This document shows positions 16,597 through 21,984 of a stretch of DNA of 64,000 nucleotides, one piece after another. A program made the translations under genes and the position numbers. This DNA comes from Nitrospirota bacterium. Lineage in GTDB: Bacteria > Nitrospirota > Thermodesulfovibrionia > Thermodesulfovibrionales > Dissulfurispiraceae. The notes beneath the pieces are model-generated. The model ran no database searches. It saw nothing but the letters and a program-made list of their open reading frames with translations, and was not told the DNA's origin. Within the stretch, counting starts at the first letter, position 1; each line of letters begins with the position of its first letter. The stretch covers positions 544,001-608,000 of the forward strand of contig CAWBMP010000004.1 in assembly GCA_963790025.1 (NCBI GenBank), read 5' to 3'.

Positions 16597-16818
16597 ATGG
16601 CTAAGAAACCAAAAGGAAAAATTGTTATAGATAAGGAACTGTGCAAGGGGTGCCGGTATTGCATAGAGGCATGCCCGAAAGGTTCCATCGTTGTTGATAC
16701 CAAGTTCAACAGTGTGGGCTGCTTTCCAGTAGATTTTTCACATCCTGAGCAATGCACCGGCTGTGCCATGTGCGCCTGGATGTGCCCTGAAATAGCAATC
16801 GAAGTCTGGCGCGAATAG
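16597..16818 (+). CDS. 2x[4Fe-4S] ferredoxin resembling a 2-oxoacid:ferredoxin oxidoreductase delta subunit
   Basis: CKGCRYCIEACP and CTGCAMCAWMCPEIAIEV; start placed at MAKKPKG (ATG 16597). Confidence 0.9.
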   Translation: MAKKPKGKIVIDKELCKGCRYCIEACPKGSIVVDTKFNSVGCFPVDFSHPEQCTGCAMCAWMCPEIAIEVWRE

Positions 16819-16929
16819 CGTGCGGCGTATTGCGTACAACGTTCTGCGTAAAAAAAGTACTTCTGCCTTGAACGCAGTACACAGAACGCAGTACGCTGAA
16901 CATATAAAAAAAGCGACGGGAGGTGTCGT

Positions 16930-17145
16930 ATGGCTAAAAAAGTATTGATTTTTGGAAAAGCCGGTTGACCCTTTACTGAGAAGGCCGTTTCGGCTTTCGG
17001 GAACAGTGCAGATTATTTCGATGTCAAGGCTGATGAAACAAAAATGGAAGAAATGCTGAGGTATTCAGGAGGAGTCAGGAAGGTGCCGGTCGTAGTTGAA
17101 AACGGGAAGGCCGTTGTCGGCTACGGAGGCTCATGAGGGGTTTGA
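16930..17145 (+). CDS. Glutaredoxin-like selenoprotein, UXX-star type, 71 aa, Sec at codons 13 and 69
   Basis: MAKKVLIFGKAG-U-PFTEKAVSAFGNSADYFDVKADETKMEEMLRYSGGVRKVPVVVENGKAVVGYGGS-U-GV*; SD GGGAGG; in-frame TGA at 16966-16968 and 17134-17136. Confidence 0.9.
16980..16998 (+). promoter_or_regulatory. Candidate SECIS hairpin for the first UGA
   Basis: GAAGGCCG-TTT-CGGCTTTC, 11 nt after TGA 16966-16968. Confidence 0.7.
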
Positions 17146-17147
17146 TC

Positions 17148-17164
17148 GCCGGTCGTGTACCGGC
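17148..17164 (+). promoter_or_regulatory. Candidate SECIS hairpin for the second UGA, lying in the 3' UTR
   Basis: GCCGGT-CGTGT-ACCGGC, 11 nt after TGA 17134-17136. Confidence 0.7.
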
Positions 17165-17186
17165 ACAAGAGTAAATGAGTAAATGA

Positions 17187-18569
17187 GTGAATGGGTTAAT
17201 GGGTAAAAAAGCTAGAAGGTTAAGATTTTACTCGAATACTCATATACTCATTTTCTCATATACTTTATTGTTGTGTCTTTTTCCTGTGACGTTGCATGCC
17301 TCCATTACAGACGCCACAAAAGAGTTTACGCTCAGGAACGGTCTTAAAGTACTGGTCGTTGAAGACCACAAGGCCCCGGTAATAACATTTCAGGTGTGGT
17401 ACAGAATAGGTTCACGCTACGAGTCTATCGGCAAGACCGGCCTGAGTCATTTCCTGGAACACATGATGTTTAAGGGGACGCCGGAATTCGGTCCCAAAAC
17501 ATTTTCAAATATTATCCAGCGCAATGGCGGCACCGACAATGCCTTTACAACAAAGGAATACACCGTCTACTTCGAATCGATCTCATCAGACAGAGTAAGT
17601 ATTCCCATAGAACTCGAATCCGACAGAATGACAAACCTTCTCCTCGCTCCTAAAGAGGTATCATCCGAACGGAATGTGGTCATGGAGGAGCGGCGTATGC
17701 GGTACGATGACAACCCTCAGAACTTGCTTGAAGAGGAAGTGACGGCCCTCGCCTTCAGCGCGCATCCCTACCGGTGGCCCGTTATCGGATGGATGTCTGA
17801 CATCACCGGACTCAGCAGGGACGACCTTTACCGTCACTACAAACAAAACTATTCGCCGGACAATGCCTTTATTGTTATTGCAGGGGATGTTAATACCGGT
17901 ACGCTATTGCCTCAGCTCGACAAATATTTCGGCGCAATCGCCCCTTCCGGGAAGAGGCCGGCTGAAGTACCCACAAAGGAACCCAGGCAACAAGGCGAGA
18001 AAAGGATAAATCTGAGGAAAGAACCGGTACAACTCCCGTTTATTCTTATTGCATACCATGTCCCTTCCTTCCCCAATGAGGACAGTTTTGCCCTTGATGT
18101 ATTGTCCACCATCCTTTCAGGAGGGAAAAGCTCGCGGCTTTACCTGGACCTGGTATACGAAAAGAGAATGGCCCTCAGCGCTTTTGCCGATTACAGCGGC
18201 TTCTACAAAGATCCGTTCCTTTTTACCCTGGGCGCGAACGCTCCACCGGGCAAAGACATCAGTGAGTTGGAAAAACTCCTGTACGATCAGATCGACAATA
18301 TTAAAAAAGCCCCTCCGTCGGAACGGGAAATGCAAAAGGCTAAAAACCAGATAGAGGCTTCATTTATTTTTGCCCAGGATTCCAACTATTCAAAAGCACA
18401 TTATACGGGGCTGTTTGAAATTCAGGGGGGATGGAGGCTTATGGACGCCTATCTCCAAGGGATCAGGAAAGTAAAATCTTCCGATGTTCAGGCCGTGGCG
18501 AAAAAATACTTCGTCACGGACAATAAGACGGTGGGTATTTTACTGCCCGGCAGGAGAAGTGAGCAATGA
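17187..18569 (+). CDS. Exported M16B zinc peptidase, catalytic subunit (start probably ATG 17199)
   Basis: Signal peptide ending TLHA, HFLEH motif, NAFTT, EERRMR. Confidence 0.9.
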   Translation: MNGLMGKKARRLRFYSNTHILIFSYTLLLCLFPVTLHASITDATKEFTLRNGLKVLVVEDHKAPVITFQVWYRIGSRYESIGKTGLSHFLEHMMFKGTPEFGPKTFSNIIQRNGGTDNAFTTKEYTVYFESISSDRVSIPIELESDRMTNLLLAPKEVSSERNVVMEERRMRYDDNPQNLLEEEVTALAFSAHPYRWPVIGWMSDITGLSRDDLYRHYKQNYSPDNAFIVIAGDVNTGTLLPQLDKYFGAIAPSGKRPAEVPTKEPRQQGEKRINLRKEPVQLPFILIAYHVPSFPNEDSFALDVLSTILSGGKSSRLYLDLVYEKRMALSAFADYSGFYKDPFLFTLGANAPPGKDISELEKLLYDQIDNIKKAPPSEREMQKAKNQIEASFIFAQDSNYSKAHYTGLFEIQGGWRLMDAYLQGIRKVKSSDVQAVAKKYFVTDNKTVGILLPGRRSEQ

Positions 18570-21219: not shown

Positions 21220-21321
21220 GACATCACTTGTAACTTTACAATGGTAATATTAGACTTAATGATATAGATCGAAATGACTGCGCTATCGGTAACAATACGT
21301 GCGCAAAGGGGGCTGGAAAAG

Positions 21322-21984
21322 ATGTCTAAATTGAGCAAGACAGTAGTAAGTTTAACGATATTTCTATTGTTAGCGGGGACCGCGCATGCTTATCAGCAAT
21401 TGGAGGGAGGTGTTGTATCATGGGTGACCACTGCTGAAAATACGAATACAGAAAACTACGGACCTCCTCAACAATATACAGCGCCGGCTCCTCCTCCCAC
21501 AGGAAACTACGGACCTCCTCAACAATATACAGCGCCAGCTCCTCCTCCGACAGGAAACTACGGACCTCCTCAACAATATACAGCGCCGGCTCCTCCTTCA
21601 ACAGGAAACTACGGACCTCCTCCGCAATATGCAGTGCCTGCTCCTCCTTCGGTGGTTGTAATACCCGGGACCTATGTATACGTTGTTCCTGATAGCAGAG
21701 TGCCAATTTTGTTTTATCACGGCAGCTGGTGGCGTCCCTTTGAAGGACGCTGGTACAGATCCAATTACTATAACGGACCGTGGTTCTATGTCAGACGTCG
21801 CGGCGTTCCCAGGGTTTTAATAACAATGCCGCCGGATTATTACTACAGCATACCACCCGGCAGCCCTTGGATACCCTATGTCGAGCTGAGAGATAATTGG
21901 GAGAGATGGGAAAGAGAGCGCCACTGGGACAGGCATGAAGAACGACGGGACGAGCACAGAGAAAGGCACTTTGACTATCGATAG
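21322..21984 (+). CDS. Secreted Pro-rich repeat protein with aromatic-rich C-terminal region
   Basis: Signal peptide ending AHA, 17-aa tandem repeats, W/Y-rich domain, charged tail; start taken as MSKLSK. Confidence 0.75.
   Translation: MSKLSKTVVSLTIFLLLAGTAHAYQQLEGGVVSWVTTAENTNTENYGPPQQYTAPAPPPTGNYGPPQQYTAPAPPPTGNYGPPQQYTAPAPPSTGNYGPPPQYAVPAPPSVVVIPGTYVYVVPDSRVPILFYHGSWWRPFEGRWYRSNYYNGPWFYVRRRGVPRVLITMPPDYYYSIPPGSPWIPYVELRDNWERWERERHWDRHEERRDEHRERHFDYR
21451..21650 (+). repeat. 51-bp coding tandem repeat (3 near-identical copies plus 1 diverged)
   Basis: Units start at 21451, 21502, 21553, 21604; encode GNYGPPQQYTAPAPPPT. Confidence 0.9.

Follow-up and report, generated by a model that had tools for sequence, protein, structure and literature searches.

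What is encoded in the apparent gap between a ferredoxin gene, ending at 16818, and an M16 peptidase gene in this Nitrospirota genome? Across the 64,000-nt stretch of DNA that we analysed (the window), the ordinary list of open reading frames has no plus-strand entry between the two. The initial annotation had placed a hidden gene there, with a Shine-Dalgarno sequence, an ATG, a 71-codon frame interrupted by two TGAs and a glutaredoxin-type R-K-V-P-V motif, and each of these is present in the sequence (Table 1): the motif spans codons 50-54, the two putative selenocysteine (Sec) codons stand in the contexts G-U-P-F-T and Y-G-G-S-U-G-V, and the stop TGA at codon 72 sits 6 nt past the second. 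Its statement that standard callers miss such a gene also agrees with the empty ORF list and with database entries for homologues, which are truncated or misread: many end just ahead of the second site, or take TGA as Trp and overrun the stop. A scan for promoters and terminators returned a single promoter-like site, at chance level and downstream of the gene, and no terminator.

Table 1. Parts of the gene and their positions in the window.
Feature	Position	Strand	Remark
Shine-Dalgarno GGGAGG	16918..16923	+	6 nt upstream of ATG 16930
CDS, 71 aa, assigned to UXX-star selenoprotein family 1, predicted glutaredoxin fold	16930..17145	+	
TGA read as Sec13	16966..16968	+	Glutaredoxin attacking-Cys position; U-P-F-T, a motif without second Cys
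SECIS-like hairpin 1	16980..16998	+	Within coding frame; loop G is position 22 (U of UGA = 1)
cis-Pro loop R50-K51-V52-P53	17077..17088	+	Predicted tail docking site
TGA read as Sec69	17134..17136	+	Third residue from the end, S-U-G-V-COOH
True stop TGA, codon 72	17143..17145	+	2 nt ahead of hairpin 2, hence not in register with it
SECIS-like hairpin 2	17148..17164	+	Entirely in 3' non-coding sequence; loop with G22-U23

The surroundings hold two further features of their own. The spacers flanking the gene (16820-16901 and 17166-17275) are long imperfect palindromes of short repeats, with a z-score of -4.29 for the upstream palindrome and a folding energy of -35.7 kcal/mol for the downstream one; pieces recur elsewhere in the genome (four other short matches of the upstream type, about 20 of the downstream type), and these are REP-like intergenic elements. 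Farther along the plus strand, 21274-21984 holds a 236-aa ORF whose start is signal-like and which carries four Pro-rich repeats in tandem.

The product matches NF041114 (UXX-star selenoprotein family 1) at 100.2 bits against a cut-off of 72, over positions 1-70 of the 70-position model, and at 85.6 bits in a six-frame search, and it matches Pfam PF00462 (Glutaredoxin) at 36.6 against 22.9 bits. The wider superfamily model NF041212 falls just below its cut-off (65.7 against 66), as do, by more, NF041211 for family 2 (32.9/100), NF047338 for family 3 (32.9/97) and NF045501 for the HUGP/GUXX-star fusion (38.4/325). The active site reads U13-P-F-T16, a UxxT motif in which P14 and T16 are invariant across 66 aligned sequences; there is no CxxC, and the classical dithiol glutaredoxin model TIGR02181 reaches only 21.5 of the 90 bits at its cut-off. 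A 2026 review tabulates NF041114 as 'Distant Grx-like protein 1', with motif UxxT and two Sec (PMC13188914), and a second article gives the same family name (PMC9312934); under the terms searched, PMC2398784 (given in the review as a reference for the family), PMC13326102 and bioRxiv 2022.07.06.499078 yielded no passage on it. We regard it as almost certain that this is a UXX-star family 1 selenoprotein gene. The initial annotation had likewise matched the product to the UXX-star glutaredoxin-like proteins and called the family described; because the two-Sec state is already in print in the review's table (PMC13188914), the gene adds one more member to a catalogued family.

Homology extends across both TGAs, as it should if both are read through. 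The window and 100 further loci gave 82 parsed sequences, 75 of them distinct, and 19 loci failed to parse; inspection of 10 of the 19 found four full members with TGA at both sites and five cut by contig ends (three showing TGA at site 2, two at site 1), and the remaining nine, weak partial matches, were left out. Among the 75 homologues, site 1 (codon 13) is TGA in 70 and Cys in five, and site 2 (codon 69) is TGA in every one. The stop two residues past site 2 is TGA in 38, TAG in 24 and TAA in 12, so that 74 end in U-x-x-stop and one is cut by a contig end. In an alignment with CPYC, Sec13 falls on the first Cys. When 1.84 billion representatives were searched with a profile, 657 matches were returned, and among the best 150 of these 657, which were examined, P0015 and P0050 carry Cys at both sites while scoring above the NF041114 cut-off. 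Two distant relatives are fusions, P0119 joining a UXX-star domain to an ArsR-type regulator and P0121 joining one to an unknown N-terminal domain, and two copies (L114 in G230 and L115 in G215) look frameshifted through assembly error or decay.

Two other readings of the TGAs were rejected. Read-through of the third UGA, at codon 72, is contradicted by the TAG or TAA stops that 36 of the 75 homologues have there, by the absence of conservation beyond it and by the hairpin rule described below, which is satisfied at 0 of 73 stops. A genetic code in which TGA means Trp is contradicted by homologues that, read from DNA, swap to Cys and not to Trp, and by the 1610 long ORFs of this genome that end in TGA.

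The genome is equipped to insert Sec. The initial annotation had named selA, selB, selC and selD as the genes to look for, and the full set scores above cut-off: selA at 608.9 against 267.9 bits, selB at 355 against 242.25, selD at 320.1 against 125 and tRNA-Sec at 68.2 against 47, the last also called by ARAGORN as a tRNA-SeC with a TCA anticodon. The selD gene carries an in-frame TGA of its own. Among 301 genomes of the phylum, NF041114 is found above cut-off in 78 and selA in 146, with both in 70 of the 78; the eight gene-bearing genomes that have no selA match are drafts, 74-98% complete, from families most of whose members have selA, and none of the families that lack selA in this survey has the gene above the NF041114 cut-off.

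Further likely Sec codons in this genome lie at G000:C4:949010, C4:302137, C4:693325, C4:825121, C4:1226542 and C2:508998. They belong to an MsrA and one FdhA, both confirmed by family scan, and to a second FdhA-like protein, SelD, an OsmC-like U-x-x-T protein and a frame of ~1980 codons with one TGA, the last three of these candidates being named by eye from motifs. All except SelD were picked by the hairpin rule and so provide no test of it.

How, then, could three closely spaced UGAs be read in two ways? The initial annotation had described a hairpin 11 nt past each Sec TGA, and centroid folds do start stems there. Folding energy, however, was rejected as SECIS evidence, as neither hairpin beats its shuffles: hairpin 1 has a z of -0.91, with 37 of 200 shuffles folding as well, and hairpin 2 a z of -0.33 (66 of 200). 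Support for the hairpins comes from position and conservation. We applied a bacterial SECIS model with a loop 16-37 nt from the UGA (PMC13188914, Fig. 2 legend), a loop of 3-9 nt, a G in the first two loop positions and an energy of at most -7.5. Hairpin 2 agrees with it throughout, having a 5-nt loop with G second, 17 nt away, at -10.4 kcal/mol. Hairpin 1 (-11.1 kcal/mol) agrees in spacing and energy, and its G is first of a 5-nt loop only with the closing G-C pair open; the lowest-energy fold has a UUU loop with the G buried in the closing pair.

Loop lengths vary in the alignment of hairpin 2, and a position rule was applied in place of column-wise covariation: a stem of at least five pairs, an early-loop G and a loop at positions 21-24. 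This rule was framed after the homologues had been seen, so that its pass rates of 51 of 70 TGA codons at site 1 and 67 of 73 codons at site 2 are inflated, and its useful part is the contrast with the Cys codons at site 1 (1 of 5) and with the true stops (0 of 73, of which 38 are TGA). Background rates were 1742 of 125632 genomic TGAs (1.4%), 30 of the 1610 TGAs that end long ORFs (1.9%), and 352/15000 and 436/14600 shuffles. That the frame is a pseudogene, or that just one of its TGAs is recoded, is consequently barely credible: the ordinary folding energies would suit such a reading, but both TGAs are conserved in 70 of 75 homologues, Cys swaps occur, the hairpins are locked in position and the Sec machinery is complete.

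What the homologues keep is the loop position (16-20 nt past the UGA at site 2) and the loop G, and not a spacing of exactly 11 nt; across the family, hairpin 1 has G23 in 66 of 70 cases and hairpin 2 has G22 in 57 of 74. Here, Val20 in place of Arg (codon 16987-16989) puts the loop G of hairpin 1 at 22 instead of 23. The substitution belongs to a lineage (the window, L009, L045, L047, L130-L134 and L136) in which Arg20 has become Val, Ile, Leu or Met with the TGA kept, and in which the loop G either stands at position 22 or 24 or is absent (L009, L045, L136); L009 and L136, where the loop of hairpin 1 has no G, are close relatives of this gene. In this lineage, either SelB tolerates a shifted or absent loop G or Sec13 insertion is weak.

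The initial annotation had further equated the 11-nt spacing with that of the E. coli fdhF SECIS, a comparison that stands in part. A stem starting 11 nt past the UGA, an apical-loop G (in hairpin 1 only if its closing G-C pair opens) and a loop 17-19 nt downstream are shared with the fdhF element and the bacterial model. The fdhF SECIS, however, requires a bulged U17 (PMC8659212) and has its loop G at 23, whereas neither hairpin here has U17 and the G lies at 22; moreover, unlike the fdhF element, hairpin 2 lies past the stop codon, in non-coding sequence. Both hairpins fit the general bacterial SECIS model better than they fit fdhF. Each Sec UGA would be served by a separate hairpin whose loop lies 17-19 nt further on, and release factor would end the chain at the codon-72 UGA, which the hairpin 2 loop follows at a distance of just 8 nt, outside the 16-37 nt range. 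From SelB biology and the conservation pattern, we infer that distance alone accounts for the different decoding of these neighbouring UGAs. The gene offers a small natural system for testing how UGA is decoded: within 180 nt it has three UGAs in frame, of which two are recoded and the third, a stop, lies between a Sec codon and that codon's hairpin.

What might the two Sec residues do? We ran AlphaFold on the 66-sequence alignment, with Cys standing for Sec, and assigned DSSP letters to the best model per run. The predicted structure (pLDDT 88.3 overall, 74 in the last block) has a glutaredoxin/NrdH-like fold over residues 1-67, with best matches at Z 8-9 and an rmsd of ~2 A over 62-67 residues, and it contains the four-strand core, the helix after the active site and the cis-Pro loop that characterize thioredoxin and glutaredoxin folds. 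Besides the core strands, the full model shows two extra 2-residue strands, 51-52 and 69-70. Removal of the last five residues under the same alignment abolished strand 51-52 and left the rest unchanged, which we read as the tail pairing with the cis-Pro loop; most simply, the model suggests pairing of U69-G70 with K51-V52 next to the cis-Pro, where the Cys of glutathione binds.

Such a placement has parallels in the wider fold. Partners of thioredoxin-fold proteins bind as an antiparallel strand at the cis-Pro loop (PMC2665069), the Val of the VP motif hydrogen-bonds the glutathione Cys, and a Lys preceding the active site, together with an Arg from the loop that follows helix 2, contacts the glutathione Gly carboxylate (PMC11724882). 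Across the 66 aligned sequences, R50, V52 and P53 are invariant and K10 is at least 90% conserved. Yet GshB, GshA, GshF, GCS2 and BshC found no match in this genome, which is 98.8% complete (glutathione synthesis models TIGR01380, TIGR01434, TIGR01435 and PF04107), and GshB was above cut-off in none of the 301 phylum genomes, an absence that, being phylum-wide, does not single out UXX-star family 1. Because the groove residues are conserved in a genome with no detected gene for glutathione or bacillithiol synthesis, we propose the tethered S-U-G tail as a stand-in for glutathione.

On balance, we lean towards a glutathione-independent, monothiol-type redoxin with a Sec13-Sec69 cycle. Sec13 would attack a disulfide or selenenyl-sulfide on the target; the S-U-G-V tail, on its Gly-rich linker, would dock in the cis-Pro groove like the Cys-Gly of glutathione; Sec69 would resolve the adduct, so that the protein in its oxidised state would hold a Sec13-Sec69 diselenide; and a flavoprotein of the thioredoxin-reductase type would re-reduce this bond. 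The likeliest role for such a cycle would be general thiol/selenol repair in an oxygen-sensitive anaerobe.

In animal thioredoxin reductase, the C-terminal Sec is an exposed mobile redox arm. Sec69 could act comparably, meeting the target itself (a peroxide, for example, or the Sec-MsrA of this genome) while Sec13 serves only to re-reduce it. The codon states would favour this arrangement, as site 2 is always TGA and site 1 is sometimes Cys, which suggests that selenium is more important on the tail than at position 13; an MsrA of this genome also has TGA as its active-site codon, and among the review's references is a title reporting the reduction of a Sec-MsrA by a Sec-glutaredoxin (PMC13188914). 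Against it, no link to msrA or a peroxiredoxin appeared among the neighbour clusters examined, and the linker is only 3-4 residues long. We consider this arrangement unlikely, although sequence alone does not separate it from the docked-tail cycle, because both pass through the same diselenide.

If the docked-tail cycle operates, what would reduce the diselenide? A universal gene neighbourhood was sought and rejected: neighbours vary between lineages, and the largest neighbour clusters cover only 13 of 75 loci (1.5-3 kb flanks). One family (f21) has a recurrent arrangement, in which a PDO-TrxR fusion lies within 3 kb on the same strand in 40 of 46 gene-bearing genomes. The order is the gene, an isochorismatase-like hydrolase and the fusion, a same-strand run headed by the gene, and the fusion was matched in all eight long f21 loci, in one of them cut by a contig end. 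Outside f21, the phylum genomes hold 0 cases of this adjacency, which may reflect one event among kin.

The present genome also has a PDO-TrxR fusion, 48-52% identical over its full length and about 135 kb away. It lies at G000:C4:696414-698024 (L117:8414-10024, minus strand) and encodes 536 aa, a PDO/AhpF-N-like domain pair with thioredoxin reductase, scoring below every NCBIfam cut-off. Matches to the fusion occur in 93 of the 301 phylum genomes, and in four of these the N-terminal part contains a TGA, which possibly marks selenoprotein forms. Thirteen genomes with both gene and fusion, this one included, keep the two apart; this query matched no fusion in 25 of the 78 gene-bearing genomes, and of the 93 fusion-bearing genomes 40 have no copy of the gene above cut-off. 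We tentatively name the PDO (AhpF-N-like)-TrxR fusion as the likeliest reductant partner, the alternatives in the genome being a stand-alone TrxR (C2:676687-677583) and a reductase that depends on ferredoxin and has a glutaredoxin of its own.

The ferredoxin gene next door raises a variant of the last alternative, in which the upstream 2[4Fe-4S] ferredoxin and a ferredoxin:thioredoxin-reductase-like protein supply the electrons. Among close kin, 7 of 9 loci have ferredoxin immediately upstream (and 6 of 9 have the M16 peptidase downstream), and the genome has a PF02943 gene. That gene, however, has a CxxC glutaredoxin of its own directly upstream; the synteny is absent in two loci of other families, only 3 of 75 clustered loci show ferredoxin, and a stable palindrome separates ferredoxin from the gene. 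We consider a ferredoxin-driven cycle very improbable. At L137:1220-1800 (G000:C2), a CxxC glutaredoxin gene overlaps a ferredoxin:thioredoxin-reductase beta-like gene, and a YruB-like redoxin lies at C2:141057-141263.

Gene neighbours and fusions also bear on a role with metals, in which Sec13 and Sec69 would together make up a two-selenol site able to bind or reduce As, Hg or some comparable ion before handing it on. The review suggests that the Sec residues of UXX-star proteins are possible metal ligands (PMC13188914), the P0119 relative is fused to an ArsR-type regulator, an arsenite-methyltransferase-like gene directly follows two Cys13 copies (L015 and L018), a TerB-like gene follows in three loci, and a docked tail would equally bring two Se atoms together. 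No metal-resistance gene, however, flanks this copy or most others, the commonest co-oriented redox neighbour is the disulfide reductase fusion, and the protein shares its fold and cis-Pro with disulfide redoxins, so that we regard a metal or metalloid function as unlikely.

Joining the structural model to the gene order of one family gives our most specific proposal, which we hold less firmly than the Sec13-Sec69 cycle itself: the tethered Ser-Sec-Gly tail may be the protein's own glutathione substitute, forming a diselenide with the active-site Sec that the PDO-TrxR fusion recycles. In the literature searched, we found neither the idea of the tail as glutathione nor this partner; the likeliest place for them is Haft and Tolstoy 2025, a reference given in the review for sister families of the UXX-star group (PMC13188914). 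If true, the proposal would supply a concrete mechanism and reductant for a named family of unknown function, and would account for the retention of a glutathione-type groove in bacteria where no glutathione synthesis was detected. The protein would then be a small glutaredoxin with a built-in selenocysteine arm in place of free glutathione, and the named candidate reductant would make the family's function testable with two purified proteins. The gene is at the same time an annotation fix, as callers drop or truncate genes of this kind and the selenoproteomes of these bacteria are therefore undercounted.

Set against known systems, the gene shares with UXX-star family 1 a whole-length match, the UxxT motif, two Sec and a second Sec three residues from the end; it departs from the family in Val20, where 70 of 75 homologues have Arg. 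Unlike the f21 copies, it is flanked by ferredoxin and M16 peptidase genes, an arrangement shared with close kin, and does not adjoin the PDO-TrxR fusion. The families of NF041212, NF041211, NF047338 and NF045501 have the same fold and C-terminal U-x-x-stop, and no fused domain is present here. With the glutaredoxins and NrdH/YruB-type proteins (PDB 3grx, 3zij and 4fiw), the predicted structure shares the fold, the position of the attacking residue, the VP motif and the groove Lys and Arg, but in contrast to classical glutaredoxins and NrdH it has no CxxC, and a short G-G-S-U-G-V tail, which did not align with these structures, replaces the last helix.
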